A stretch of 64,000 nt of DNA from Ignavibacteria bacterium (GCA_016178625.1 JACOSX010000017.1:6213-70212); one strand, 5' to 3'; shown: positions 1 to 29,237, counted from the stretch's first letter. A program made the numbers and translations. The notes: a model not told the origin generated them from the sequence alone.

Positions 1-210
1 ATGGCCGGGAGGGACTGTATCACTATCTCGAATTTTTCCATCAAGACCATGAATACGGACTTCACCGCCGCCTGAGTTGGCAGACATTTGCTTCGCGATG
101 TGTTCTGCCTCCCCTTGTGTATCTGCAAACGCACTTACACGGTCAGCGCCTTCTTTAGTTACGCGCCACTGACCCGAATCTTTGTCTTTCGAAACGTGGT
201 AGTTCGACAT
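1..210 (-). CDS. DUF2188-like small protein, 3' end runs off the window (MSNYHVSKDKDSGQWRVTKEGADRVSAF...)
   Basis: Reverse-strand ORF starting at ATG 208-210 with a GGAG RBS; N-terminus matches the DUF2188 pattern common in phage/ICE genes. Confidence 0.5.
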   Translation of the reverse strand, partial: MSNYHVSKDKDSGQWRVTKEGADRVSAFADTQGEAEHIAKQMSANSGGGEVRIHGLDGKIRDSDTVPPGH

Positions 211-241
211 GTTCAATTTACTCCTCAAAGTATTATGGTTA

Positions 242-961
242 CTAATTATTAAGTGATTTGGTCTTTGGTTTTTTCATAACCTGAATAACCTTACCGTTAA
301 TCATGAAGTCGTCATTCTCATGTATGTGAATCGGTGGAAAGCTCTGTGTTGATTCTGACATAAGAACGATTTGGTTATTGCTTCTGTCCCAATGAAACTT
401 TTTGATATTTGCCATGCCGTCGATTACAGAAATGACGACATCTCCCTCCTTGGGTTCACGGGGTACGCTATCAATGATTACATAGTCTCCGTCTTCTATA
501 GATTTGCCTGCAACATTCGTCCGATTCATTGATGGGCCATTAACTTTCAGTGCGAAAAGCTTATGAGTCGCTGGCACATTAACGAACGTACTTGACACAC
601 GAAGAAATCCCTCGATGTTTTCTTCTGCAAAAAGTTGTGCCGGACCTGCATTTGCTGAACCAAGGACTGGTATTGCCAAGAGGCGAGCCTTCTTGAGAAG
701 ACCAGACAGTGATTTTTGACCAGTCCTTTCGATCAAACCCCTTTTGCGATCAATTCGGATCAAGCCTTTTCTTTCAAGTTGATTTAAGTGATGCTTAATG
801 AGCTGGGGGGACTCTTCGCCAACAAACTTACCGATTTGTCGAAGGGTATACTGTCCAATATTTTTTTCTTGAGCGAGCTTGAGTAGTTTTTCTTGGAGTA
901 TATGCATGGCCATTTCAATATAATCCTTTCGTTTATGAAAGTCAAATTTAACTCTTGACAA
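242..961 (-). CDS. LexA-like S24 peptidase family repressor (N-terminal wHTH, Ala-Gly cleavage site, Ser/Lys dyad)
   Basis: 239 aa. The N-terminus resembles the LexA DNA-binding domain, ANAG supplies the Ala-Gly site, GPSM the Ser nucleophile, and the IKKF lysine the general base. Confidence 0.8.
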   Translation of the reverse strand: MSRVKFDFHKRKDYIEMAMHILQEKLLKLAQEKNIGQYTLRQIGKFVGEESPQLIKHHLNQLERKGLIRIDRKRGLIERTGQKSLSGLLKKARLLAIPVLGSANAGPAQLFAEENIEGFLRVSSTFVNVPATHKLFALKVNGPSMNRTNVAGKSIEDGDYVIIDSVPREPKEGDVVISVIDGMANIKKFHWDRSNNQIVLMSESTQSFPPIHIHENDDFMINGKVIQVMKKPKTKSLNN

Positions 962-1401
962 GACTTAAATCAATATGATCAAGATTGAACTCATTCCGTA
1001 AGGGAGTCAATCTCAGGGAAGTATCGGATTTCTTTCAACACGAAAGGTGACATAGAGAAGACCTCTTGTAGCCTCACACTGGAGGTGAAAACAAATAAAA
1101 AGGAAGCAGCATTTTGCCACTTCCTTTACCCACGTTTCTTACCAACGCAGGTTTCGTCGCCTCCCGACGACAGATAACTTCAGCTCCTTCGTGAACTGCC
1201 GACGACTCATACGCCATGTTCTGCTTTCCGCCTAACAAACCCTTTCGTTCTGTCCTGCGTAAGGGGGTTACTCGGAATATGCCTCAATGGACTGCTACTT
1301 TCGTACCAGATGATTCTATACTCTATATACATGCACAAGGGCCTATGCTAAACTTCATCTGAGAGTAGGAAGTTCAAATTAGTCTGTAACCTCATGGATT
1401 A

Positions 1402-2067
1402 ATGCATACTGTCAAGTTGAATGACGATGCCTTGATTGTTATCCAATCCATCGTCGAGCACCACGTAGAAATCGTGTCATTACAACTAATCGCTCATACG
1501 GTCGGATTAAACTGGCGGCAAAGATACGCCACCAGTAAGCTGCAGCTGTCTAACTTGGAGAGCGCCTTTTACCAAGACAAGCCGCTCCAGCGATTAAATT
1601 ATCAACGTGAGGAATTCAGGAATCTAAGCCTTGATAATCTTCCCGAAGTTGAATCTCACGTCGTGTGGTCCATGACCTCGAAGGTCTTGTGCTCCGACGC
1701 GCAGTTTCGCCATATCCCTATGATGAATTTCCACCCCACATTCGGAAGTCTATTGGATATTATTAAGGCGATCAGGTTGGTCTGCGGTACTGAGCCAGGC
1801 TTTCTACTAGCGAGTGGACGTTACTTCCATTATTACGGAAACTTTCTCCTCAATGAAAGGGAGTGGGAAAAATTCCTGGCATCCTTTCTGATGCCTTGCT
1901 GCTTAGTAAGTCCGCGTTATATAGGCAATCGTCTTCTCGCCGGAGAGTGTACCTTGCGATTGACAACGAACGCTATGTACAAGCCCGTGATCCCTCGTGT
2001 GGTGTTCGCATTCGATGGCGGCTCTAAATGGACAAAGTTATCAGAAGCTCCGTTCGTGCTCCACTAG
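1402..2067 (+). CDS. hypothetical protein, 221 aa, divergent from the LexA-like gene
   Basis: Long ORF with no recognisable motif; sits in the divergent promoter region shared with the LexA-like gene. Confidence 0.45.
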   Translation: MHTVKLNDDALIVIQSIVEHHVEIVSLQLIAHTVGLNWRQRYATSKLQLSNLESAFYQDKPLQRLNYQREEFRNLSLDNLPEVESHVVWSMTSKVLCSDAQFRHIPMMNFHPTFGSLLDIIKAIRLVCGTEPGFLLASGRYFHYYGNFLLNEREWEKFLASFLMPCCLVSPRYIGNRLLAGECTLRLTTNAMYKPVIPRVVFAFDGGSKWTKLSEAPFVLH

Positions 2068-2208
2068 TTACGACCATAACCGTTACTGCCGACGCGGTGC
2101 AGGGTTGTCATCCGGCAAGATTAAAGGCAAATCACAGCGAGAACTGGCTCGCAGCTCAACAGTCATTTGAGTCGTTAATAACCTCACAATGTTGCTGTCT
2201 GGCGGAAA

Positions 2209-3147
2209 TCACACAGTTGCCTTTCTGACCAGGAACGTACACGAGGAGGGTGAACTCTTGGGATTTATTTTTGCCTGTAGACTGAACTTCTGTCCTCGGT
2301 GATCGAACTCCCGAATGTGCATATTGACGCCTGTTCGCAGGTAGGAAATCGTATTCTTAATCGCTGAAACGAGAGAGGATTGAAGGTGACCACCCCTTCG
2401 AAGGGATTCATGAGGGGACTTCAAGGAGGGGAAGCTAGCATGTTCTGCCACCAATTTTGGAACGATCCATCCTCGGAATGAGGCTCCCTTAAAAATGAAG
2501 GAACCGTTTGTCTTGATTGATCCGTCGGATTCGATTACGGATTTGAATATAAGGCAATCCCAAAGCCGCAGTTCTCTGACGAGTCGATGGCAAATAACAT
2601 CTGCTGATGCCATGTAAACTTTGGAGAGCCTAGCCAAAGCTTCAAGTGACGGATCCAGTCGTCTCTCCTGAATTACCTCTCGAAGTGATGCTTCTGGAAG
2701 GAGTATCGCACCGGCAACAAAATTCGCGAAATCTTCTTCGACCCAGTACCGACTTCTGACAAATTTTCTTGTGGGAATCTCTTGGTCGATATCATAAAAA
2801 AAAGTATGGCCCACCTCATGTGCGATAGTGAATCGTTTTCTTAATTTAGGCACCTCGGCCCTGATCTTCATCAAAAATCCTCCACGCACCGGAATCAAGA
2901 TTCCTAAGTGAGAAGACGGCAATGCCTTTTCTGATTTTTCCAGGATTCTTCGACACTTGAACAGATTCTCAGGCTGGAATGGTGGTCCGTTCCATTGCTG
3001 CCTTTGCAATTCCTGGCAGATGTAGTCGCTAATCCGTTGCTTAGTTTGCGAAAGAAGTGACTGGCGATCCAGATAAACATAGGTCTCGCCCAGCCACGAT
3101 TTCGCGAGCCACTTGACGGAGGGATCGATCATTTTGGATTCTGTCAT
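2209..3147 (-). CDS. ImmA/IrrE family (COG2856) zinc metallopeptidase with a C-terminal extension
   Basis: HEVGH (HExxH) inside TIAHEVGHTFFYD, typical of the ImmA/IrrE/CapP family. 312 aa, about 150 aa longer than minimal ImmA. Its start overlaps the stop of the HD gene (ATGA). Confidence 0.75.
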   Translation of the reverse strand: MTESKMIDPSVKWLAKSWLGETYVYLDRQSLLSQTKQRISDYICQELQRQQWNGPPFQPENLFKCRRILEKSEKALPSSHLGILIPVRGGFLMKIRAEVPKLRKRFTIAHEVGHTFFYDIDQEIPTRKFVRSRYWVEEDFANFVAGAILLPEASLREVIQERRLDPSLEALARLSKVYMASADVICHRLVRELRLWDCLIFKSVIESDGSIKTNGSFIFKGASFRGWIVPKLVAEHASFPSLKSPHESLRRGGHLQSSLVSAIKNTISYLRTGVNMHIREFDHRGQKFSLQAKINPKSSPSSCTFLVRKATV

Positions 3148-4829
3148 GCTAAGCGAATTCTGGAGTACTCATCGAATGAGAGACTTATAACGCTAGACAA
3201 ATCGTCCGACACGGCGGGTATATTCACTCTTGCGGCGATTCCGAGTACTGAATCATGATCGAGATGTGTCAACTCAGGATGCTGTCCCGTCAATCTGTCC
3301 TCGAACCGGAGTAAATAATGCACGTGTGAGGGATTGAAAAAGGGGCGACAATCTTCAACGTCGCTCTGCAGTCTGAACATAATTTGACAATCACCATGCA
3401 CGAGAGTCTTGACAGAATCATCAATATCTGGATCCACAAATACATACATACACCATAATTCTTTGTGCTTCTGAGTGATTGATGATCTTATTTCTTCGGC
3501 CACACGCGAGGGCGCCTTTTCATCTAAAGGGCCAATGATGTGGCCATCGATATTCACTAACGCCTTAACTGCTTTGTATCCCATGCCCTCACCAGGACAA
3601 TAAATTACTACGCTTCCTTCAGGTAGGTCATTTTGTTTCTCAAGTGACCTCTCCGCTTGCCAACGTACTTCTTTTTTGGCAAGACGTTTGCGAAGAGTTT
3701 CCTTATCCGAATAAACTGGATCCTCTCCACTTTCCCCGCCGAACCGCAATCCGTATACAGGTTTGAAAAGCTTGTGTCTTGATAAATTGCTGGTGAGACG
3801 CTTGGCAATGCTGGTGCCTTCATTTTTCATGTACTCTAAAAGCGAGTCATCGGACATCGAATACAACCGGCTTTTATCAATCTTTTCCCTGTGAAACATG
3901 TCAGTTACTGCGGAGATAATCATCGCGGAGCTTGAAATTTTTGCATGGTGAAAATAGACCTTCTCCGCTAATGAATATCTGAGTCTGAGGAGGTGCAGGA
4001 GTTCGGATTGGACATCGCGTCTAATTTTTTTGGTCGACGGTTTGTGCAACCTCAGTACAAGCCGAGGTTTTCCATTATACGTCGTCACGTAAAGGTAGGA
4101 GAGAAATCGATCATCGTACCCCTCTTCAAGTCCACAAAAATAAAGATCCCTCCGGATGTAGTCCAGCAGATCGGCACACAAGGTGTTCCCAATTATATCT
4201 CCAATGAAGGGTCTGACGAGTCCTTCGACAGTGTGTTCCTCGATGGCTTGAATTGTTGCTCTAAGGTCCCGAAGCACCATTATTGGCTCGTATTGCGTGG
4301 CGCCGCTGTTACTCATTCGTTGTAAACTTTCCGATGTCCTAATGATTTGAGCAACCTCGCTCTTATCTCCCAAGAACCTCTCGGTCCGCTCGGCGTCTTT
4401 CCACTGGCTCATCAACAGGCCACCCTCGTCCTCGATTGTATGTCCGAAGGGGATGTGCGCGAGGTCATGCAACAGCGCACTCAGGCGAATCAGAAGATGA
4501 TCGTAATGGTCGATTTTGATATCAGGATATGGATTGCTATTAACCAATCTGACAAGTTTTTCGGCTACATGAAGACACCCAATAGCATGATCAAATCGTG
4601 TATGCATTGCGCATGGATAAACAAGATGCGTAGTACCTAACTGTCGCAGACCACGCAGACGCTGAAAACATTCAGTATCTATAATTCTTACTTCAAGCTC
4701 TGTAAGCATGATATCACCATGCACGGCGTCGCGAATAGTTTTGTGCGGCTTAAATAAACGCTCTAAATGGCCATCGGGATCTGCTTTCTTACTGTCAAAG
4801 ATAGTTGCCTGAGAAATAGATTTTCTCAT
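3144..4829 (-). CDS. SAMHD1-like HD-domain dNTP triphosphohydrolase (dGTPase family)
   Basis: IRDAVHGDIML..RIIDT..FQRLR..QLG, HTRFDHAIG (H..HD), LLHDLAHIPFGH and DLLDYIRRD line up with the conserved blocks of SAMHD1/Dgt/EF1143; 561 aa. Confidence 0.85.
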   Translation of the reverse strand: MRKSISQATIFDSKKADPDGHLERLFKPHKTIRDAVHGDIMLTELEVRIIDTECFQRLRGLRQLGTTHLVYPCAMHTRFDHAIGCLHVAEKLVRLVNSNPYPDIKIDHYDHLLIRLSALLHDLAHIPFGHTIEDEGGLLMSQWKDAERTERFLGDKSEVAQIIRTSESLQRMSNSGATQYEPIMVLRDLRATIQAIEEHTVEGLVRPFIGDIIGNTLCADLLDYIRRDLYFCGLEEGYDDRFLSYLYVTTYNGKPRLVLRLHKPSTKKIRRDVQSELLHLLRLRYSLAEKVYFHHAKISSSAMIISAVTDMFHREKIDKSRLYSMSDDSLLEYMKNEGTSIAKRLTSNLSRHKLFKPVYGLRFGGESGEDPVYSDKETLRKRLAKKEVRWQAERSLEKQNDLPEGSVVIYCPGEGMGYKAVKALVNIDGHIIGPLDEKAPSRVAEEIRSSITQKHKELWCMYVFVDPDIDDSVKTLVHGDCQIMFRLQSDVEDCRPFFNPSHVHYLLRFEDRLTGQHPELTHLDHDSVLGIAARVNIPAVSDDLSSVISLSFDEYSRIRLA

Positions 4830-4950
4830 CGATCCACAACTCCTTCCATCGGTTGATTACGTTTGACTCGCGATATGAAGAATATCTAACGGAATAAGAT
4901 AGTGATATCCAATACAAAATTCAATACCACTGCCGACGCGGGAACAGTTC

Positions 4951-4995
4951 GGCAGAAAAACACGCCCGCTTTGATATTATTCAAAAACGGGCGTG
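4951..4995 (-). terminator. Rho-independent terminator after the DUF932/SymE/108-aa operon
   Basis: CACGCCCG...CGGGCGTG stem followed by TTTTTCT on the minus strand. Confidence 0.55.
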
Positions 4996-5000
4996 ATTAG

Positions 5001-5327
5001 TTATGTTTTGATTGTGTCTATTTCCACCAAGAATCGTTCGTATTCGTCCTTGGTAAACCAGTCCACCAGCGGCCTCCCGGTGCGGATGAAAGTGAAATTT
5101 CCATCACGCACCAGCACTGGTGGTTTGCTGGGCAGCTCCCATCGGATCGCGAGATAATAGAACTCGATGCGAGTTCCGTCAGAGAGCTTGTGTCTTGCTG
5201 CGATGTCAGCAGTTGCGACTATGCCAGTTGTACCTTTTGGCACGCCTGAGAATGCCACGAGAGTTCGAACTCTTCTTCCGATCTTCGCCAGAGCGGTCTG
5301 CTTGTCAAAGAGCATCTCATTATTCAT
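5001..5327 (-). CDS. hypothetical protein (108 aa) coupled to the SymE-like gene
   Basis: Starts at MNNEMLF with a GGAGG RBS. The ATGAATAA junction overlaps the SymE-like stop; the upstream part of track ORF 5001..5471 is probably not translated. Confidence 0.5.
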   Translation of the reverse strand: MNNEMLFDKQTALAKIGRRVRTLVAFSGVPKGTTGIVATADIAARHKLSDGTRIEFYYLAIRWELPSKPPVLVRDGNFTFIRTGRPLVDWFTKDEYERFLVEIDTIKT

Positions 5328-5583
5328 CGCATACCTCCGTAGATGTTGGACAGATTTTAGTGATGGTGATGCGATCAGGTTCGAGGTTGAGCGTGAACGA
5401 ATCACCGATGTTGAACCCAAAATCCTCAAGGTATTTTCCTCCCAATCGGATGTACGGATGAGGAGAGCCACTCTCGTAATCGTAGTAGCGCGAGCTAACG
5501 GTGCGGCTTCGCGGGATACGTTGATGGTTGTTATCTGATGTCTTGAAGTCTAGCTCGATCATCATTGCCTCGCTTTCCATCAA
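5320..5583 (-). CDS. SymE-like (type I toxin family, AbrB/SpoVT-like fold) protein
   Basis: RYYDY...PHPYIRLGGKYLEDFGFNIGDSF matches the SymE core (Y..Y..P.I.L.GKWLE.AGF..G). ATGA overlap with the DUF932 stop. Confidence 0.6.
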   Translation of the reverse strand: MMESEAMMIELDFKTSDNNHQRIPRSRTVSSRYYDYESGSPHPYIRLGGKYLEDFGFNIGDSFTLNLEPDRITITKICPTSTEVCDE

Positions 5584-6545
5584 TTTCTTGCCTGAACCAT
5601 GTCGAGTGCAAGCTTGAAAGCATCTTTCTTGATTCGCTCTCCTGAGCCGAACCAGATCGACTTCAGACGAGCCGAATCGTCCATGCTCGGCTGGCGATAA
5701 TAGTCCACGTACTCTGTTACTGCATTGTAGGCACTCCAGAGCGTATCTGGAGCGAGGTCGGCTCCTTTGCCGGTATGTGCCAGCTCGAACACCTTCTCTC
5801 GAACCGGATTTTTCCGATGGGGATGTCCGTTGGTAGGGGGATCGGGGAAGACCTTCTTCACGTAGTCGGTTAGCACACGCCCATCGATCCTGATGCTGCT
5901 CATTTGGTTGAAGATGAGGTCGAGTTCCTCGTAGAGCTTGTTAGTGAGCCCGAGAATCTCATGTGCTTCCTTCATCCGTTCAGAGGCATGTGCAGTATGC
6001 CGGATGCGGACTTCCTGTTCCGCACCACTCAAGGCGAGTGACAGAGTATTCTCGCACACGACACGTACAGGAGTCAGTTTGACCCTCACGACGCCGCTTC
6101 CGTCATGCGAGTTGGTGAGAAGCAGAAACTTCTCGACCAAGTCGTTGCCCTTTACACGGATATAGTCAGGCAACTTCGCCAAAAGCCAGATCCGTTCTCC
6201 TTTGCCGAAAGCTCCCGCGGTGTGGTAGATGGCTTCGCCTTCTCCGACCAATGCATCGAAGGTGGTGAAGGCCTGCTCGTTCTGGATCGGTACGTAGCGC
6301 GAGCCAACCACACCGAGCACTTGGTTAGTATCTGCACGTACCGTAGCGAAGTGGCTCTCGACTGGGAGATCAAGTGTCTCGGTCTTGAGCGGAATTTTAT
6401 CAACCGTGAAGCCCAAGCCCGCAGCTTCGATTGCTTCTTGAGCCGTAGCCGGATGGTCGAGCTTGGTGCCGAGCTTGTGCCACGGCACTTCACCGACGTA
6501 CATCATGGCAGCTTTGCCGTTTGTTTCATTGAGATTATGTCCCAT
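5580..6545 (-). CDS. DUF932 family protein (phage/plasmid/ICE associated)
   Basis: 321 aa; the LLLTNSHDGSGVVRVKLTPVRVVCENTL core is typical of DUF932 (TIGR03299-like). Confidence 0.7.
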   Translation of the reverse strand: MGHNLNETNGKAAMMYVGEVPWHKLGTKLDHPATAQEAIEAAGLGFTVDKIPLKTETLDLPVESHFATVRADTNQVLGVVGSRYVPIQNEQAFTTFDALVGEGEAIYHTAGAFGKGERIWLLAKLPDYIRVKGNDLVEKFLLLTNSHDGSGVVRVKLTPVRVVCENTLSLALSGAEQEVRIRHTAHASERMKEAHEILGLTNKLYEELDLIFNQMSSIRIDGRVLTDYVKKVFPDPPTNGHPHRKNPVREKVFELAHTGKGADLAPDTLWSAYNAVTEYVDYYRQPSMDDSARLKSIWFGSGERIKKDAFKLALDMVQARN

Positions 6546-6699
6546 AGTGATATTCTCCTTTCATGGGGTTTGTATTTCTGTTCAGTGAATTGCGTTTAAG
6601 ACAGCAGGCGAAAAGAAAGCCCGTGAAGTTTTTGTATTGCAACCTCACGGGCCTGTTTGAACGTACGATGCAGCGAAGAGTGAGCGTCATCCCGACGTA

Positions 6700-6912
6700 T
6701 CAGGACGAACAAACACCTGCCGCTTCATCGATCGCCTCCCGAAACTTCTCCACGTTCTCACCGAAGACGTTCAGGTACGAGCGTTTCCTCTCCTCGCCGT
6801 CGAATCTCGACTCGCAAATCGAGAGGTACTTGTTGCCGTTCTTCGCTTCCTTCACGTCGATGAAGTAGGTGGATTTTCCTGCCTTGATACTTTTGGAATA
6901 GATTGCGTCCAT
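6700..6912 (-). CDS. PUR-alpha-like (DUF3276-like) single-repeat nucleic-acid-binding protein
   Basis: 70 aa; KAGKSTYFIDVKEAKNGNKYLSI..SR resembles the PUR repeat; AAGGAG RBS. Confidence 0.45.
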   Translation of the reverse strand: MDAIYSKSIKAGKSTYFIDVKEAKNGNKYLSICESRFDGEERKRSYLNVFGENVEKFREAIDEAAGVCSS

Positions 6913-6981
6913 AGGTTTGCTCCTTGGATATTATGGTTAATTGTTGATGGCTTTTCGCCTGTGAATTACTTGAATAGCTGG

Positions 6982-7794
6982 TTAGGCTGATTTCCTCTGC
7001 CACAAGGGGCAGAGATTTGCGTACTCGCACTCCTTGCACCAGAAGCCGGCGCGAGGATAGAAGATTCCTTCGGTGATTGCCTTAAGAACCTGTTCGACGA
7101 GATGGAAGAACACTTCGTAATCTTCATCGACCCGCCGTGTCTCGGTCACTTCGATCCGTGGCTTCTTGTTCTTGATGAAGTTGATGACTTTGAACTTCTT
7201 GGGCGCCCGACCATAGAGACTCTTGAAGGCGTAGCCGTAGGCGGTGAGCTGCAGCATCGATTGGATGTCGAACGAGCTCATGACCTGCGCTGAGGTTTTG
7301 AACTCGACGATGGTGTCGTCGCGCTCCACGATGTCGAAGTACCCCTCCAGGTTTATTCCCAATTCCCTGCCATTCCTAGGATGTACCAACGGTATGACGA
7401 AGGGAATTTCGCTCCCCTTGACTTGAGGGCGTTGCGGATATCTGTGGTACAGTGACATCATTTCTCTCCCCATGACGACGAGTTTCATGTCGTCGTCGCT
7501 ATCCTTGTACCGGATGTCTTCATCGGCTTTCTGGCTGTACCAATCCGTCTCGAAGACCTTGGCGAGCTGTTCCTGAGAAACCTTCGCTCCTGTAAGCTCC
7601 GCCTTGTGAAACCACGACAGAGCCGAGTGGAGCGCGCTGCCGAAGGCAAGCGCGGAAGGGCGGAACGTTCGAGGTATGAGATCTATGTACTGAAACTGGT
7701 ACTTCTGAGGGCATTGGAGGTAGAGCCGTAGTTGGCTGTTGGATAAGTGATCAAGCGGCTGCATGGGATGGCCGACCTCCCTTCGCGTCTTCAA
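6982..7794 (-). CDS. Cas4-like PD-(D/E)xK nuclease (RecB-family, DUF83-like) with a four-Cys cluster
   Basis: D (YFDIV) and E-x-K (VEFKT) motifs; N-terminal LQCP Cys plus C-terminal CKECEYANLC, as in Cas4/AddB Fe-S nucleases. Confidence 0.65.
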   Translation of the reverse strand: MKTRREVGHPMQPLDHLSNSQLRLYLQCPQKYQFQYIDLIPRTFRPSALAFGSALHSALSWFHKAELTGAKVSQEQLAKVFETDWYSQKADEDIRYKDSDDDMKLVVMGREMMSLYHRYPQRPQVKGSEIPFVIPLVHPRNGRELGINLEGYFDIVERDDTIVEFKTSAQVMSSFDIQSMLQLTAYGYAFKSLYGRAPKKFKVINFIKNKKPRIEVTETRRVDEDYEVFFHLVEQVLKAITEGIFYPRAGFWCKECEYANLCPLWQRKSA

Positions 7795-8179
7795 GAAATC
7801 TCTCTATTGCACGGCTCGCTTCGAGCTTGGTGACTTCCTTCAGGGAATTCACCTGAAATTCCTTCTTGAGGCGCTCATGGGCTTGATCGCCTTCGACGCC
7901 TTGATCTGCCAAGAGGCGGAAGAGGAGTCGCTTTTGCGAATCACTCATGTGTGCCTCCACGTTTCCGGAGTTGGGCTTCGCGGATAGATGAGATTTGTCA
8001 TCCTCTTTTTTAGTTGAAGCATTAGACACGACGTGTAGTTTTGCTTCACCGTTATTCCCGCCAAGTTTCACCTGACCGGTTTGTGCAGGTGTGATTTCTG
8101 TCTCCGAGATCGTGACAGTGAACAGCAGGTTACCGCTGGCTGAGCGTACCTCTAGCCTAGCTGCTGGTTGCGGTTGCAT
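7751..8179 (-). CDS. hypothetical protein (142 aa)
   Basis: ORF with an AAAGGAG RBS, first gene of the minus-strand DNA-processing operon; its 3' end overlaps the Cas4-like start. Confidence 0.4.
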   Translation of the reverse strand: MQPQPAARLEVRSASGNLLFTVTISETEITPAQTGQVKLGGNNGEAKLHVVSNASTKKEDDKSHLSAKPNSGNVEAHMSDSQKRLLFRLLADQGVEGDQAHERLKKEFQVNSLKEVTKLEASRAIERFLEDAKGGRPSHAAA

Positions 8180-8338
8180 GTTGTCTTTCTCCTTTCTTGT
8201 GATGTTGTGAATGATCTGTGTTGTCTCTTATCCTCTAGTATTTCTCTAGAGCCGAACTGCTACAAGGCGGGAGAAATTGTCTCTGGCGTAAAGAATGCCC
8301 TACTTCGCTAGCTTCTAGGTTGTGGATATCATGGAAGT

Positions 8339-9664
8339 ATGGATGAACTACGTAATGACAAAGAACCGATCACCCCCTTGGCGGTTACCAATTGGCGAGA
8401 CATCAGACGAACGTTCGGCATCAAGCGGAAGAACCGGCGTGGACACATCTACGTCATTGGCAAGAGCGGGACAGGGAAATCGAGCTTGATGGGTAATATG
8501 GTCATCTCCGATATGGAGCAGGGCTACGGTTTAGCGCTCATCGACCCCCACGGGGATTTGGCTGAAGCTGTACTCACCTACGTGCCGGAAAAGAGACTAG
8601 CCGATGTTATTTATTTCAATCCGGCTGACGTAGCATGCCCGATTGCTTTTAATCCACTAAAGAATGTTGCCCCTGACCAGCGGTACCTCGTGGCCTCAGG
8701 ACTCATTTCCGTATTCAAGAAAATCTGGGCAGAATTCTGGGGACCGCGCTTGGAACACATCCTACGGTTTTCACTCTTGACGCTCTTGGAATATCCACAG
8801 AGCACCTTGCTTGACCTGCCGAGACTGTTGACGGACGCCCAGTTTAGAAAAGAGGTAGTCTCAGGAGTAACCCAGCGTGAGGTACAAGAATTTTGGTCTA
8901 ACGAGTTTGACCGTTATTCGGCCTACTTCAGGTCAGAAGCGGTCGCTCCCATACTCAACAAGATGGGGCAATTCCTCACCAGCCTCCCCTTGAGAAATAT
9001 CGTAGGTCAAAGGCAGACGAGCTTTACCATGCGCGAGGCAATGGATTCTGGGAAAATCCTGATTGCCAATGTATCGAAGGGAAGAATAGGTGAAGATACG
9101 AGCTCGCTCTTGGGGGCGATGCTCGTCACGGAGATTCAGTTAGCTGCCTTGAGCCGAGCCGACACGGAAGAACACCAGCGCAGGCCGTTCTACCTCTACA
9201 TCGATGAGGTACATAATTTCCTCACGACTTCTGTCGCCGACATGCTGTCAGAGAGCAGGAAATTCAACCTTAGCATTACGTGCGCGAATCAATTTACCAA
9301 TCAGTTGGATGACGATGTACGTTCAGCCATTCTCGGCAATGTGGGAACGATAATCTCGTTTCGCGTCGGTCCGGAAGATGCCGAGCTACTCGCCAAGGAG
9401 TTCTCTCCGGTCTTCACTGAATCAGATATCCTCAACCTCCCAAACCATAGCATCTACTTGAAGCTCATGATTGACGGTGTCACCTCCCTACCCTTCAGTG
9501 CCACGACACTCCCTTTGCCTGAGCCCGTATCTTTCTTGGTGGAAAAAATTATCGAAGCTTCACGTAAGCGATATACACGTCCAAGAAAAGAGGTGGAGGC
9601 AGAGATACTGTTGAAGGCCAGGAAAGAACAAAGACGAGAGATCGATCAGCCGAGCCTGTTCTGA
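8339..9664 (+). CDS. TraD/VirD4-like P-loop ATPase (T4SS coupling-protein-like, FtsK/HerA superfamily)
   Basis: Walker A VIGKSGTGKSS, Walker B FYLYIDEVHNF; 441 aa; divergent from the DNA-processing operon. Confidence 0.6.
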   Translation: MDELRNDKEPITPLAVTNWRDIRRTFGIKRKNRRGHIYVIGKSGTGKSSLMGNMVISDMEQGYGLALIDPHGDLAEAVLTYVPEKRLADVIYFNPADVACPIAFNPLKNVAPDQRYLVASGLISVFKKIWAEFWGPRLEHILRFSLLTLLEYPQSTLLDLPRLLTDAQFRKEVVSGVTQREVQEFWSNEFDRYSAYFRSEAVAPILNKMGQFLTSLPLRNIVGQRQTSFTMREAMDSGKILIANVSKGRIGEDTSSLLGAMLVTEIQLAALSRADTEEHQRRPFYLYIDEVHNFLTTSVADMLSESRKFNLSITCANQFTNQLDDDVRSAILGNVGTIISFRVGPEDAELLAKEFSPVFTESDILNLPNHSIYLKLMIDGVTSLPFSATTLPLPEPVSFLVEKIIEASRKRYTRPRKEVEAEILLKARKEQRREIDQPSLF

Positions 9665-9844
9665 ACACGAGCCGCACGGGGTGCAAATCGCCCTAAGGTT
9701 TTGTGTTGCTTTCGATATCAATACTTAGCCATAGTTGACGCCAAAGGAAATTTATCCCGTCATGACTAACACCTCTTGAGACGATATCCTTCTCCTTAGC
9801 TCTTTAACATATCAAACACAATCATAAGAGAAAGGAGAACAGAA

Positions 9845-10111
9845 ATGAACTGCTCGCACTGTGGTCGAGAAGTTACAGGGAGGGTTATCGTTCGAAGCCT
9901 CACCCTTGCTAAGGCACTTCCGGTGGTACAGATGGAATCGACACCGGAGCGTGACTGGATTTGCTGCGATGCCTGCAATACCATCATCTGCCACGACTGC
10001 TGCTGCTACCCGACGAGTGGCTATTGCGATACTTGTATCGAGAAGTACAAGCTCCACGATCACTTAGCTCAGATAGGGCTGATTCCGGGGAGGGAGGATC
10101 ACTGCTTATGA
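9845..10111 (+). CDS. Cys-rich Zn-ribbon-like small protein, copy A
   Basis: 88 aa with CxxC...DWIxCxxC...CxxCCxYPxSGxCxxCI...HLAQIGLIP, paralogous to 10874..11149; AAAGGAG RBS. Confidence 0.6.
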   Translation: MNCSHCGREVTGRVIVRSLTLAKALPVVQMESTPERDWICCDACNTIICHDCCCYPTSGYCDTCIEKYKLHDHLAQIGLIPGREDHCL

Positions 10112-10422
10112 ACACAAATACCCAAAGAGATAGAAGAAACGCTCCTAACGCAAATTTAGGGCTTACAGAAGGCTCTAACTGTGCCACTCGGATGGCCTCC
10201 GAGATGACGATAACACTTGATCCGACTAAGGTAAAAAAGCAGCGAAGAATTCCACGTCTGAGGAAGGTCTACTATGGTTACTATGACCGGGAATTTCAAG
10301 CTCCCCATCCTCTCATTCGTCTCCGTGGCAAATACCTTGAAGATTTCGGGTTCGCGATCGGTGATAAGATTGAGGTCGACTTTCAACCTCACTGCATCAT
10401 CATCACCAAGGTGTTGCCATGA
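10108..10422 (+). CDS. SymE-like protein (second paralog)
   Basis: Starts at MNTNTQ (internal Met of track ORF 9961..10422) behind a GGGAGGGAGGA SD; YYGYYDREFQAPHPLIRLRGKYLEDFGFAIGDKIEV matches the SymE core. ATGA overlaps on both sides. Confidence 0.6.
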   Translation: MNTNTQRDRRNAPNANLGLTEGSNCATRMASEMTITLDPTKVKKQRRIPRLRKVYYGYYDREFQAPHPLIRLRGKYLEDFGFAIGDKIEVDFQPHCIIITKVLP

Positions 10423-10877
10423 AACGCCCCAAAGTGGTATTTGAAACTCCAGTGTACAAGGTGCTGCTGGTGCAGGAGTCGACGGTCGAGGTATCCGAGA
10501 GACAGATCCGAAGTCCGGAAGACGCTGCCAAAATAGTTATGGACTATCTACGAGGTGTCGACCGTGAGCATTTCGTAGGTCTGTACCTCAATTCCGCCAA
10601 TCGGCTCATCGGGATTCACACGATTACGATCGGCATCCTCAACTCGTCGCTGGTTCATCCACGTGAGGTATTCAAGCTTGCTTACATGATGAACGCCGCA
10701 TCGATTATCGTCTCTCACAACCATCCCTCTGGCAATGTTGAACCGTCTAGCGAAGACATTACCCTGACGAAACAGCTTGCTGATGCGGGGAAAATCCTTG
10801 GCATACCTCTTCACGATCACGTAATTGTTACGGAGCAAAACGGTTTCATGAGCTTTGCAGAGAGGGGGTTGTTATGA
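10419..10877 (+). CDS. RadC-like JAB/MPN (DUF2466) protein
   Basis: Complete JAMM motif SHNHPSGNVEPSSED (HxHx7Sx2D); 152 aa. Confidence 0.8.
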   Translation: MKRPKVVFETPVYKVLLVQESTVEVSERQIRSPEDAAKIVMDYLRGVDREHFVGLYLNSANRLIGIHTITIGILNSSLVHPREVFKLAYMMNAASIIVSHNHPSGNVEPSSEDITLTKQLADAGKILGIPLHDHVIVTEQNGFMSFAERGLL

Positions 10878-17658: not shown

Positions 17659-18192
17659 TCAGGCAGGGGCAACAGCGGGGGTAATTGATTTCACAAATGA
17701 GTTCACATCCCCGAGGCAGCATTCGCCCTTGGGATTCTTGATGTCGCAGGCGCAGTTGCCGGCTTTGACTTCTTTAGCAATCTGCAGGGAGGCTGTTGAT
17801 TTTCCTGTGCTGACGAGCTCTTGTTTGATTCGGGCGCGCGTCCAATCGAAGCAATAGCAGACGCTCACATCTTCGCCCTTGTCCTTCGCGAAAGCCTTAA
17901 CCCTAACATCATCGATGGTGAAATATGGAACACTTTCATTGGAGAAGTAGACAACTCTACAGTTCGAATCAGCGCAGTAATAGTATTGCACGTTTTGAAT
18001 TGAGCCAATTTTTTCGGGCTTCAAGAGATGCTCAAGGGTACGCTTTTGTACCTTCTTCGAGACCGTTCGTGAAACCGGACACTGGGCTCGTGCAGGGGCA
18101 GGAGTGGTATCCGTGACTAAACAACACTCATCACCGACTTTATGTTTATCTTCTGCAATTACCTCGATCGGTTGGACGCAGCAGTTATTCAT
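17659..18192 (-). CDS. vicinal-cysteine-rich hypothetical protein (CC, CxxC, CYC, CAC, CC motifs)
   Basis: Starts at MNNCCVQP (internal Met of track ORF 17659..18264), directly after the MerT-like stop. Confidence 0.45.
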   Translation of the reverse strand: MNNCCVQPIEVIAEDKHKVGDECCLVTDTTPAPARAQCPVSRTVSKKVQKRTLEHLLKPEKIGSIQNVQYYYCADSNCRVVYFSNESVPYFTIDDVRVKAFAKDKGEDVSVCYCFDWTRARIKQELVSTGKSTASLQIAKEVKAGNCACDIKNPKGECCLGDVNSFVKSITPAVAPA

Positions 18193-19247
18193 CGTTTTGT
18201 TCCTTTCGTTTGCGGAGAGCAACATTCGGACTTGCTTTTCTCTTTGCTCTCTTTGGAACAACATGCATCTTCATTTCCCGATGGTACACTTTCCCTTTTG
18301 AGTATTTGCAGATCGGGCATATTTCCTTTGCCAAGATACTTTTCACCAGCGGCAACGACATCCCGTTCAATCCGATGGTACAATGAATCATCAAGTTCGT
18401 TGAACGATTGGAGGGACAGGAAGCCGCGTTGGATTATCGCTTTGACATCTTCACGAAACGCCTGCTTGTCTTCGCCCGTTTTGAACTTAACATGTGGACT
18501 AACGCCCGTGAGAATCCGGTCAGCGATAACGCCCGCTTCCTCAATACTCAGCGCATCAACGTCTGAACCTTTATACCACATATCCTTCGCTTTGAAGTCC
18601 TCGAGAAGGGTAGTTCGATCCTGCTCACTTACTTGCTCAATCGGTAGTTCATGTCGAGAGAACACCGACTTGAGCACCGTTTGGTGTGCTGTGGCACTCG
18701 TGCCTTCATTCCATACCACAGCCATGACGGTTCCCCGCCGGTTCAGCCAAGCTCCTTTCACGGTTGAGTCTTTCATGAGATCAAGCAAGATGAACTTTGC
18801 CCTGCTGCCACAACCGATACTCGGCGCGGCATTACACACCAGAGGCACATCGAAGAAGCTAATGTCCCGGTCAAGGATCAGGGAACTGTTCTCGGAAGGC
18901 TTCGACGGTGAAGATGACGCTGTGAATCCAAAATATGGAAAGGCGATTGCGCCGGCCGCAACAAGAGTTGCGCACCACACGCCGATTTTGTTCCAGAGGC
19001 TGGAACTTTGAACCTTGCAGCTCCCGTCTTCACACTTCACCTCGCGTTTACGATAGGCGAAGTAGAACGCAAGACCGAGAAGAAGTACCGTAAGACCGAT
19101 CAGGTATGAGCGGTAAGGTTCAAGCATGGAAAACAGGCCGATACTACCAACCCCGATCAGTGCCAACGCCACGGGTCCGATACAACACAGGGACGCAATG
19201 ATTGCGGCAATTACTCCACCCGTGCTTGAGAAGGTTGCTTTACTCAT
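18189..19247 (-). CDS. MerT-like membrane transporter fused to a C-terminal domain ending in paired CC motifs
   Basis: First TM carries SLCCIGP (MerT-type vicinal Cys), the loop has CEDGSC, and three TM helices are followed by a soluble domain with CC...CC. Confidence 0.55.
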   Translation of the reverse strand: MSKATFSSTGGVIAAIIASLCCIGPVALALIGVGSIGLFSMLEPYRSYLIGLTVLLLGLAFYFAYRKREVKCEDGSCKVQSSSLWNKIGVWCATLVAAGAIAFPYFGFTASSSPSKPSENSSLILDRDISFFDVPLVCNAAPSIGCGSRAKFILLDLMKDSTVKGAWLNRRGTVMAVVWNEGTSATAHQTVLKSVFSRHELPIEQVSEQDRTTLLEDFKAKDMWYKGSDVDALSIEEAGVIADRILTGVSPHVKFKTGEDKQAFREDVKAIIQRGFLSLQSFNELDDSLYHRIERDVVAAGEKYLGKGNMPDLQILKRESVPSGNEDACCSKESKEKSKSECCSPQTKGTKR

Positions 19248-26644: not shown

Positions 26645-28138
26645 ATGGAGAAAGAAAAATCGGTCGGTATTTGGATTAGAGTCTCGACAGAAGATCAAGC
26701 CAGAGGTGAAAGCCCGGAGCATCACGAGAAGCGCGCCCGCTACTACGCGGAATCGAAGGGATGGTCTATCAAAGAAGTCTATCGTCTTGAGGCGGTTAGT
26801 GGTAAGTCGGTGATGGAACATCCCGAGACGAAACGGATGCTGGCTGACGTACGATCGCACAAGATTACAGGAATTATCTTTTCCAAGTTGGCACGATTAG
26901 CTCGTAACACAAGAGAGCTTCTGGACTTCGCCGATATCTTTCGTGAATGTGACGCAGACCTAGTAAGTTTGCAAGAATCGATTGACACTTCAACCCCAGC
27001 TGGACGGCTCTTCTATACTATGATTGCTGCTATGGCGCAGTGGGAGCGAGAAGAAATAGCGGAACGTGTAGCAGCGTCAGTGCCGATACGTGCCAAGCTT
27101 GGCAAACCCCTCGGAGGTGCTGCTCCGTTTGGATACCAATGGGTAGACAAAAAACTGCTGATTGATCCAAAGGAAGCTCCGGTACGAAAACGAGTCTACG
27201 AACTATTCCTTGAACATCGACGCAAGAGAACGGTCGCCCGTCTACTGAACGAATCAGGATATCGCACCCGGAATGGTGGCCGGTTCTCGGATACCACAGT
27301 GGATCGTCTCTTGCGTGATCCAGTAGCCAAAGGGAAACGCCGAATGAACTATACGAAGAGCTTGGGACAGAAGAAAAAATGGATCATAAAGCCTGAGGAC
27401 GAATGGGTACATATAAATGTTGAGCCGATTGTGAGCGATGAGGTATGGGCACACTGCAACCAAATCCTGGGTGAACAATACCAAAAGCAGAATCGGCGCC
27501 CGGCTGAACACCTTTTTACCGGTATAGTGCTCTGTCACTGCGGTAACAAAATGTACGTCCCACACAAATCGCTGAAGTACACGTGCTACAAATGCCACAA
27601 TAAAATCCCCACCTCTGACTTGGAAGGGATATACCATGAGCAACTGAAAACGTTCTTTTTTTCAAATGACGAAATTTCAACTTACCTGAATAAGGCTGAT
27701 GAACTTATAAATGATCGGCAAAATCTATTCGTTTCACTTGAGGAGGAAGCCAAGAGGCTAAAGCGAGAGATGGACAAGTTGGTCCGACTACACCTTGATG
27801 GAGAGATGCCTAAAGAGGGATTCGGGAACCACTACCGGCCGCTGGAAGACAGGCTGAAACAAATAGAGAATCAACTCCCCGAACTGCAGGGTGAGATCGA
27901 TTACCTCAAAATCCAGTATCTATCAAGCGACGAGGTACTTAGCGAGGCTAAGGATCTACATCAGCGATGGCCTACACTCGAACTTTCTGAAAAAAGAAGT
28001 ATCGTAGAAACAATCACCCAAAAAATAACTATTAGCAATGACGAGGTTTCAATCAATCTATCGTACATGCCATCCTCGGCAGAAATGGCAACAGAAATGC
28101 AACACAACGTCAGGGATTCATTGCACACACCAGCATGA
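26645..28138 (+). CDS. large serine recombinase (resolvase/invertase catalytic domain, recombinase domain, zinc ribbon, coiled coil)
   Basis: [11 protein letters not shown] catalytic-Ser motif, CHCGNKMY...CYKCHNK zinc ribbon; 497 aa; 3' end overlaps the comM remnant. Confidence 0.85.
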
Positions 28139-29171
28139 AGTTGGCTGGATAATCGATCGACATTTTCGACCGGCTGATCGTAACGTGAGCATCCTCCAGA
28201 GGTTGACGAAGAACTTCGAGGACGTTGCGGGCGAATTCCGGAAGCTCATCGAGAAATAACACGCCATGGTAAGAAAGAGAAATCTCGCCCGGTCGAGGCA
28301 CTGTTCCACCGCCGACAAGAGCGCTATCGGAGATTGTATGATGCGGAGAGCGGAATGGACGCGTTGAGATCAGCGCTGAGTCGGGCGGCAACAGACCGGC
28401 GACAGAATGAATCTTGGTTGTCTCAATCGCCTCGTCAAATGTGAGAGGGGGGAGAATGGTTGGCAAGCGTTTGGCAAGCATAGTTTTCCCGGACCCGGGC
28501 GGACCGATCATGATGATGTTATGTCCCCCTGCAGCAGCTACCTCCAGAGCGCGCTTCACATTCTCCTGTCCTTTGACATCGTCAAAGTCGATTGGATATC
28601 GCTGATCCTGATTGAACACTTCACGGAGATCAACACGAAACGGCTTGAGCATTGTGTGTTCGCCATTGAGGAAGGAGACCGTTTCAACAAGAGACTCCAT
28701 CGGATAGACTTCAAGTTCTCCGACCATCGCCGCTTCCTTCGCGTTCTCTCGTGGAACGATCATGCCGCGGATGCCATTCTTTCTTACCTCAACCGCGATC
28801 GGCAGGGTTCCATGCACGGGGCGGAGAGTGCCGTCGAGAGCGAGTTCCCCGAGCATGACGAAGTCTTTCAATATGTCGGGAAGTACTTGGCCTGTCGCCG
28901 CGAGAATACCAACGGCGATCGGGAGATCGAACGCCGAGCCTTCTTTCTTAATGTCGGCAGGCGCGAGGTTCACCGTGATGCGTTGACCCGGAGGGAATCG
29001 AAAGCCTGTTGTTTTAATGGCTGCATAGACGCGATCGCGGCTCTCCTTCACGGCATTATCCGGCAATCCAACAACATTAAACGCATTGCTGGATGCCACA
29101 ATGTGTGTCTCTACCTGAATGAGATGTGCCTTGATGCCTATTGTTGAAGCGCTGAGTGCGTGAGAAAACAT
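28110..29171 (-). pseudogene. comM: comM/yifB Mg-chelatase-like AAA+ gene, truncated after the ...LVCAMNP sensor motif (C-terminal third missing)
   Basis: N-terminal [21 protein letters not shown], Walker A GPPGSGKT, Walker [10 protein letters not shown]; ends at AMNP, where full-length ComM continues with a Cys-rich region. Confidence 0.7.
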
Positions 29172-29237
29172 AGGAACAATTCCTCCCGGAAGTTCTTTCA
29201 ACATACGGAACGGATGAATGAACTGCAACTCGAAAAA

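Follow-up and report, generated by a model that had tools for sequence, protein, structure and literature searches.

A stretch of 64,000 nucleotides from an Ignavibacteria bacterium (GCA_016178625.1 JACOSX010000017.1:6213-70212; hereafter the window) encodes, side by side, a SAMHD1-like HD phosphohydrolase and a zinc metalloprotease of the CapP/IrrE type. This pairing raises two questions: (i) whether the two genes form a unit of their own, and with which neighbors, and (ii) what a protease of a damage-sensor fold may be doing next to an enzyme predicted to hydrolyze deoxynucleoside triphosphates (dNTPs). How healthy cells prevent immune enzymes that deplete nucleotides from acting is an open question. 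An earlier note on this DNA had joined the two genes to a nearby LexA-like repressor gene as one damage- or infection-triggered module. We find that the real unit is a self-contained two-gene cassette of 2.6 kb on the minus strand (2209-4829), known from ~16 bacterial and archaeal loci, and we consider it a candidate for an undescribed antiviral or dNTP-control switch.

Addressing the first question, we tabulated the length of the HD protein against the presence of the protease over 80 metagenome loci and 79 viral loci. Long-form loci were those with an HD protein of at least 540 aa; all 13 distinct ones with at least ~0.9 kb of sequence downstream have a protease gene within 0.5 kb, on the same strand in 10 (7 with overlapping ends) and convergent in 3. 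Five more long-form loci end too early to judge. Of the 95 short-form loci, whose HD proteins have a median length of 411 aa and which are flanked by 1.2 kb or more on each side, just one, L035, has a protease nearby; the match there is weak, and the HD protein is split into pieces of 209 and 431 aa, suggesting a long form with a frameshift. An apparent long HD gene without a partner (L020) was rejected as over-extension of a short-form open reading frame (ORF) in a high-GC contig.

The association also holds when approached from the protease. A word-indexed protein search gave few protease relatives and a single-protein contig scan gave one, so an exhaustive search was needed; it returned 142 relatives at E <= 1e-30. 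Reverse look-up of four of the best non-seed M78 relatives (P0135, P0137, P0139, and P0141) found a long HD gene immediately upstream in 4/4, with P0139 leading back to a known locus (L001). Across 15 loci, pairwise identities of the HD and M78 proteins correlate (r = 0.87, Mantel p <= 2e-4), and the protease diverges faster than its partner. The cassette is autonomous and co-inherited. Recurrence of the pair in other genomes was a check proposed in the earlier note, and the two genes prove to be conserved together and usually translationally coupled.

The hosts of the pair include Ignavibacteria, Bathyarchaeia, and one Saccharibacteria metagenome-assembled genome (MAG). At the loci of the closest HD homologues (L001 and L003) the protease gene follows directly downstream with a 4-nt overlap, and in the Saccharibacteria MAG (L009, CAYITW010000006.1, 8001-12231) the overlap is 14 nt, with 70% identity for the HD protein and 53% for the protease. 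The protease gene is convergent at the Bathyarchaeia locus (L005-L008), where precomputed Pfam annotation missed it and our own profile matched at 3e-77. Among the viral loci, one IMG/VR contig (L096) carries the pair; in the other matches the SAMHD1-like gene is short and has no protease beside it, and many of these matches lie on contigs of giant-virus MAGs. A near-identity search of window positions 1-10000 against a plasmid database gave no match. In the neighborhoods of the pair loci, neither a helix-turn-helix (HTH) gene nor a LexA gene recurs as a conserved neighbor. A hidden small HTH gene was considered and rejected, since 10 small or adjacent ORFs from 6 loci gave 0 HTH matches.

The HD protein matches Pfam HD (8.7e-08) and HD_assoc_2 (1.9e-10), and the solved structures closest to it by phmmer against the PDB are SAMHD1 (3e-23) and a fungal SAMHD1 (9mr6, 1e-23). 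Its AlphaFold model is confident (predicted local distance difference test [pLDDT] 91.5, predicted template modeling score [pTM] 0.90), and the top 50 Foldseek hits of this model in the PDB are all SAMHD1 (E ~1e-16, TM ~0.65 on target), in agreement with the SAMHD1-like identity proposed in the earlier note. The HD-enzyme motifs listed there, HGDI, RIIDT, FQRLR, RFDH, LLHDLAHIPFGH, and DLLDYIRRD, are present in the translation. Across 45 aligned homologues, the metal ligands H81, H121, D122, and D220 (H...HD...D) are invariant and align to the SAMHD1 motif residues; D51, Q56, Q63, L64, R78, Y224, D228, and R284 are also invariant, and the invariant residues align with residues of the allosteric and substrate sites of SAMHD1. 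In the phmmer alignment D51, Q56, and R59 match the SAMHD1 allosteric-site residues D137, Q142, and R145 (human numbering), and the counterparts of R164, Y315, D319, and R366 are conserved as well. Models of Dgt-type enzymes scored far below their cutoffs (NF041026, 19.5 bits against 400; TIGR01353, 33.8 against 152.35), and the PADLOC dGTPase model matches at 9e-08 over residues 47-134 alone, about 90 N-terminal residues. By sequence comparison, the protein belongs to the SAMHD1/COG1078 branch and not the Dgt branch, and it most likely hydrolyzes dNTPs.

Short-form homologues align to residues ~30-470 of this protein only. The long forms add ~30 N-terminal residues, disordered in the model, and a conserved helical C-terminal extension of ~95 aa (residues ~466-561) that is the mark of the partnered form. 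The extension carries the motif GDC..F.L.N and an R508 that is nearly invariant, and it ends in an LSYDEFC-like helix, set off by a linker that is variable and rich in gaps. Some long-form HD proteins (P0014/L175, P0055, and P0056) have N-terminal fusions that precomputed annotation assigns to weak ChaC-like, glycosyltransferase, or HTH_17 domains, and these fusions suggest that the N-terminal region varies and serves for input or as an accessory.

The protease matches Peptidase_M78 (1.6e-10). Its HEVGH motif is confirmed in the translation, and R105, H110, E111, H114, and E138 are invariant across 16 protease partners. The structure model (pLDDT 85, pTM 0.84) comprises an N-terminal two-helix hairpin, a peptidase domain, a helical domain, and a C-terminal beta/alpha GAF/PAS-like domain; by structure comparison its fold is that of CapP/IrrE, GAF-like domain included. 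It has the M78 zinc site (HExxH plus Glu) and the peptidase, helical, and GAF domains expected of CapP. PADLOC models and this comparison support the CapP/IrrE-like identity suggested earlier. The extra C-terminal domain that had been reported is present, but its length is ~120 aa and not ~150 aa, and such a GAF/PAS-like domain is normal for CapP/IrrE. No HTH or XRE domain was found in the protease by Pfam. The PADLOC RmrA models match it at ~1e-06 over the M78 core only (residues ~100-190), and the spr1629 model at 2.3e-05. The best 150 of 37,417 M78 relatives include no HD-M78 fusion, and none of these 150 is longer than 446 aa.

More distant M78 relatives have other partners, so the association with the HD gene is specific to the subfamily of the window protease. 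P0126 lies behind an XRE gene, and the genes that precede P0128 and P0132 are small. P0126 (21% identity, same C-terminal domain; L090, 4602-10400) is encoded directly ahead of cas6, cas1, and cas3; together with its XRE HTH gene it is a CapH/CapP-like regulator pair fronting a type I CRISPR-cas locus.

Within the window, the four ORFs in and around the cassette have the coordinates and strands given in the earlier note (Table 1), and the ATGA overlap between the HD stop and the protease start is confirmed in the sequence. The HD and protease genes form their own transcription unit, because a hairpin with a T run (4998-4958) ends the preceding gene and the ribosome-binding site GGAAGGAG precedes the HD start. 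No sigma-70-type consensus was scored in the region upstream of the HD gene, in a scan that is uninformative for a Bacteroidota-like organism.

Table 1. Features in and around the two-gene cassette (positions counted from the first nucleotide of the window)
Feature	Position	Strand	Evidence and remarks
SAMHD1-family HD phosphohydrolase, 561 aa, long form	3144..4829	-	Pfam HD + HD_assoc_2; predicted dNTP triphosphohydrolase, cassette effector
CapP/IrrE-type M78 zinc metalloprotease, 312 aa	2209..3147	-	Peptidase_M78; predicted cassette sensor/regulator
Non-coding region upstream of HD gene, presumed promoter of the two-gene unit	4830..4957	-	GGAAGGAG ribosome-binding site before HD start
Terminator-like hairpin, 15-nt arms then T run, 3' of preceding gene; upstream unit boundary	4958..4998	-	Inverted repeat 4958-4972 / 4984-4998, 87% complementary
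Weak terminator-like hairpin just past protease stop, possible unit end	2137..2152	-	Consensus scan; site count not above shuffles
AEP-primase-like gene, 221 aa, convergent with protease gene; judged outside the core cassette	1402..2067	+	PF24387 9.3e-26
LexA/CI-like S24 autoprotease repressor; judged part of a separate DUF2188-SMODS-SLATT-like operon	242..961	-	S24 + LexA_DNA_bind

The LexA-like gene, which had been taken for a part of the system, is judged not to belong to it. It accompanies the pair at no other locus, it has a promoter-like site of its own with an adjoining 23-bp palindrome (947-969) that occurs once in the 64-kb window and is absent upstream of the HD gene, and it lies in a separate operon. 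The convergent AEP-like gene stands between it and the pair. The protein itself matches Peptidase_S24 (3e-20) and LexA_DNA_bind (6.8e-07), with an Ala-Gly site and a GPSM serine motif visible in the translation; it scored 97.5 bits against TIGR00498, below the cutoff of 110.95. Its ORF probably starts at an internal ATG, at ~907-913, giving ~221-223 aa, because the promoter-like site (945-917) falls inside the longest ORF and the public record gives 221 aa. A minus-strand terminator-like hairpin (1099-1127; strong 13-bp stem, then a T run) in the intergenic region between the LexA-like and AEP-like genes, upstream of this promoter-like site, may insulate the gene from read-through.

What the LexA-like protein may regulate is indicated by the public record of the same genome (Ignavibacteria MAG GCA_016200425.1), whose protease is 100% identical. 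There (L095, 2502-7193) the LexA-like gene heads an operon that continues with DUF2188, a SMODS nucleotidyltransferase (307 aa), a weak SLATT_4-like protein (166 aa), and a 712-aa protein without a Pfam match. DUF2188 operons are a class under damage-responsive regulator pairs (Lau et al., 10.1101/2022.04.27.489752). The LexA-like protein is best read as the putative regulator of this neighboring CBASS-like DUF2188-SMODS-SLATT operon, and its location, first in a SMODS operon that a mobile element carries, favors an element-borne LexA/CI-like repressor. A LexA-type autoprotease would then take the role in this SMODS/SLATT operon that the CapH/CapP pair is described to have in DUF2188 operons. 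The 221-aa gene, previously called unknown, encodes an AEP-like protein. As a conserved third component it was rejected, since it occurs only in the window and at L009 (1.6e-78), even when a two-sequence profile was searched at E <= 1. At L009 a protein with two HTH_3 domains precedes the AEP-like gene, in place of the LexA-like gene, and we read the AEP-like gene and the repressor before it as a separate repressor/primase-like unit. The trio of HD, protease, and AEP-like genes at L009 resembles the window copy, which points to horizontal transfer between very distant phyla or to a binning error.

From its gene content, the left ~28 kb of the window looks like an integrated mobile element, as the earlier note had supposed. 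The gene for a large serine recombinase (26645-28138, 497 aa) stops exactly at the break in a comM-like Mg-chelatase gene (28110-29228, minus strand), which has lost its 3' part from within the Mg_chelatase domain; this junction is probably the right end of an element integrated into comM and running past the left edge of the window. Other genes of the element include a type IV coupling protein (T4CP)-like ATPase, DUF932, a PD-(D/E)XK nuclease, RadC, two SymE-like ORFs, and a MerT-like gene. Of the SymE-toxin-like ORFs in the cargo region, 5320-5583 (minus strand) is annotated in the public record and 9961-10422 (plus strand) matches Pfam SymE_toxin at 2.5e-10; the RadC-like JAB gene (10419-10877, plus strand) overlaps the latter. 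A 352-aa ORF within the putative element (18189-19247, minus strand) has an N-terminal MerT mercuric-transport domain (1.7e-15), while the C-terminal two-thirds carry no domain assignment.

Elsewhere the cassette adjoins a HinfI-type restriction-modification system at one locus, and at L003 a short prokaryotic Argonaute (pAgo) with TIR-APAZ (432-3333; PADLOC pAgo_I 1e-184, Aga_TIR-PNTD 1e-120) is encoded on the contig of the pair, ~4.7 kb upstream of it. At three independent loci, including an archaeal one (L003 3605-7916, L005 4739-7592, and L031 414-3178), the pair comes directly after genes for a DCD-like protein (dCTP deaminase fold), a GIDA-like FAD protein of ~450 aa, and either an MPG glycosylase or an AP endonuclease. 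These neighbors are homologous across the three loci (phmmer 1e-6 to 1e-54), and the cluster and the pair may together make up a larger nucleotide or base-modification conflict or repair module. The neighborhoods of the cassette are otherwise highly variable.

Potentially addressing the second question, we propose, tentatively and at a little short of an even chance, that the protease acts on the dNTPase itself, turning an infection or DNA-damage cue into dNTP depletion against invaders. The reason for this proposal is that the relatives CapP, IrrE, and ImmA cleave a neighboring HTH repressor, yet no repressor travels with the pair. CapP is turned on to cleave the CapH repressor when single-stranded DNA (ssDNA) is bound between its peptidase and GAF domains (PMC13228613). 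By analogy, ssDNA or another infection or damage cue would bind the groove between the peptidase and GAF-like domains of the cassette protease. The activated protease would cut an extension specific to the dNTPase family, either the ~95-aa C-terminal helical domain or the disordered N-terminal tail, and cleavage would switch the enzyme on rather than off, deplete dNTPs, and keep a phage or other invader from replicating its DNA. That a dNTPase used in defense can depend on a partner regulator of its own is known from Clover (PMC12265719). A role in defense is also supported by loci that include restriction-modification or pAgo genes and, in the window, an element with SMODS/SLATT-like and SymE-like genes. 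The more sweeping proposition, that an enzyme has replaced the repressor as substrate of an ssDNA-sensing protease of the CapP/IrrE type, so that proteolysis directly gates a SAMHD1-type dNTPase and provides bacteria and archaea with a transcription-independent, protease-triggered immune switch based on nucleotide depletion, is more doubtful.

Several observations weigh against a protease-activated antiviral dNTPase. Some loci lie in housekeeping surroundings, among Bathyarchaeia ribosomal proteins or beside pheT and prephenate dehydratase, and the DCD-like, MPG, and AP endonuclease neighbors fit a role in repair or dNTP homeostasis equally well. In the translation of the window protease no Cys lies between H114 and E138; the cysteine switch, which just a third of CapPs have (10.1101/2022.04.27.489752), is thus missing. 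A search of the C-terminal extension against PDB sequences, the C-terminal domains of CapH and DdrO included, gave nothing below E = 0.3. PADLOC v2 has no model for the pair, and the antiphage dGTPase models match weakly.

An alternative that we consider unlikely but worth keeping in view is damage-responsive control of the dNTP pool for repair. Here the dNTPase would keep dNTPs low until the ssDNA-activated protease destroyed it and dNTPs rose, a logic like that of IrrE/DdrO, to which the damage-sensor fold of the protease, the three loci downstream of DCD-like, GIDA-like, and MPG or AP endonuclease genes, and the housekeeping neighborhoods all lend themselves. The spread of the cassette is patchy, however, with a 70%-identical copy common to Ignavibacteria and a Saccharibacteria MAG; the window copy is on a mobile element, others lie by restriction-modification and pAgo genes, and the neighborhoods vary. 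Such features are typical of defense cassettes and therefore weigh against repair. An addiction module resembling a toxin-antitoxin system, quite improbable in our judgment, would make the dNTPase a growth-arresting toxin that the protease neutralizes by binding or constant turnover, thereby stabilizing the element. Two overlapping genes in an autonomous cassette, on an element that also has SymE-like toxins, would suit this arrangement; M78 domains do occur in antitoxin-type proteins (RmrA and spr1629, at the E-values above), and the Clover partner restrains its dNTPase (PMC12265719). Against it, both proteins are large, every protease member retains an intact catalytic site and a sensor domain, and the pair is also found in chromosomal housekeeping contexts. 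Co-translation, moreover, is not obligatory, because the genes are convergent at three loci.

The remaining two explanations look for a repressor. In the three-part circuit of the earlier note, the protease, or RecA-stimulated self-cleavage, would remove the LexA-like repressor and so induce the dNTPase. The repressor gene does lie ~1.25 kb away on the same strand, the L009 protein with two HTH_3 domains occupies an equivalent position, and repressors are the classical substrates of M78 proteases. Nonetheless this circuit is very unlikely: the LexA-like gene is missing from all other pair loci, its palindrome is not found upstream of the HD gene, the AEP-like gene and a terminator-like hairpin intervene, and the gene comes first in a DUF2188-SMODS-SLATT-like operon, a class of operon under regulator pairs (10.1101/2022.04.27.489752). 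Barely credible is the idea, which the earlier note had named as one that would undo its proposal, that adjacency means nothing for the HD gene and that the protease is the ImmA-type regulator of the element, with its repressor substrate encoded elsewhere. The conjugation-type genes of the element (T4CP-like, DUF932, and serine recombinase) would accord with it, as would the distant relatives P0126, P0128, and P0132, which pair with small upstream genes, one an XRE HTH gene before a CRISPR-cas locus. Yet the HD gene, not a repressor, is the conserved neighbor at every assessable locus, archaeal chromosomal loci included, whatever the element context, and the two proteins co-diverge; the idea is already strongly disfavored.

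The components of the cassette are of known kinds, and what is new is their combination and the implied change of substrate of a CapP-type protease. A literature search that included the CapP, dGTPase-survey, and Clover papers found no description of the HD-protease pair, in line with the earlier note; its coverage was incomplete, and the result is absence of evidence only. If our proposal of direct action on the dNTPase is true, it would extend the CapP/IrrE/ImmA sensor family from transcriptional to direct effector control, with the first M78 sensor protease acting on an immune effector instead of a transcription factor. To the question of how such enzymes are kept off, Clover answers with an inhibitory nucleotide signal (PMC12265719), and a SAMHD1 homologue gated by a protease would add a second answer, one with a different mechanism. 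The cassette could also serve as a prokaryotic model for regulated SAMHD1 activity, and it is directly testable because it is small, has clear active-site residues, and occurs in bacteria and archaea. Should control of dNTPs for repair prove true instead, the cassette would represent a new coupling of DNA-damage sensing to dNTP supply.

Compared with known systems, the protease has the architecture of CapP, which with CapH regulates CBASS and other defense operons in response to DNA damage (Lau et al. 2022, 10.1101/2022.04.27.489752; Calloji et al. 2026, PMC13228613). The pair has no CapH-like HTH substrate gene, however, and its presumed target would be an enzyme, not a repressor. The CapP gene lies upstream of the operon that it regulates, on the opposite strand (10.1101/2022.04.27.489752), whereas the protease gene of the cassette is downstream of the effector gene, usually overlapping it. 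The window protease also differs from CapP in having no cysteine-switch loop and in its extra N-terminal two-helix hairpin. The targets of IrrE/PprI-DdrO of Deinococcus, and of ImmA-ImmR of ICEBs1 and prophages, are the transcription of a regulon and of an element; the window protease is tied to one enzyme gene, with no XRE gene adjacent to it in the window. ImmA is encoded beside its XRE repressor ImmR, at an element's regulatory end, and it is not known to have a GAF-like domain. RosmerTA and the COG2856-Xre pairs have in common with the cassette an M78 domain in a two-gene conflict cassette. RmrA, at ~370-400 aa, is an XRE HTH fused to M78 and is encoded beside RmrT, whereas the window protease has no XRE domain and its partner is an HD enzyme.

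On the side of the enzyme, SAMHD1 and prokaryotic SAMHD1-like dNTPases (COG1078; EF1143 2o6i, Aquifex 2hek) have the same HD fold and H..HD..D metal site. Enzymes of this family split dNTPs into deoxynucleoside and triphosphate and oligomerize when activated by nucleotides, and the window protein conserves the residues of the substrate and allosteric sites. The window protein differs in the lack of a SAM domain and in its ~30 extra N-terminal residues and C-terminal extension, and it has a dedicated protease partner, whereas ordinary short-form homologues have none. The single-gene antiphage dGTPase (Tal et al. 2022, 10.1101/2021.04.26.441389) and the Clover proteins CloA/CloB (PMC12265719) represent the same predicted chemistry, antiviral dNTP hydrolysis. 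Their enzymes are Dgt-type, and the HD protein of the window matches the corresponding models only over its ~90 N-terminal residues, far below their cutoffs. In Clover the partner of the dNTPase is a nucleotidyltransferase, whereas in the cassette described here it is a protease.

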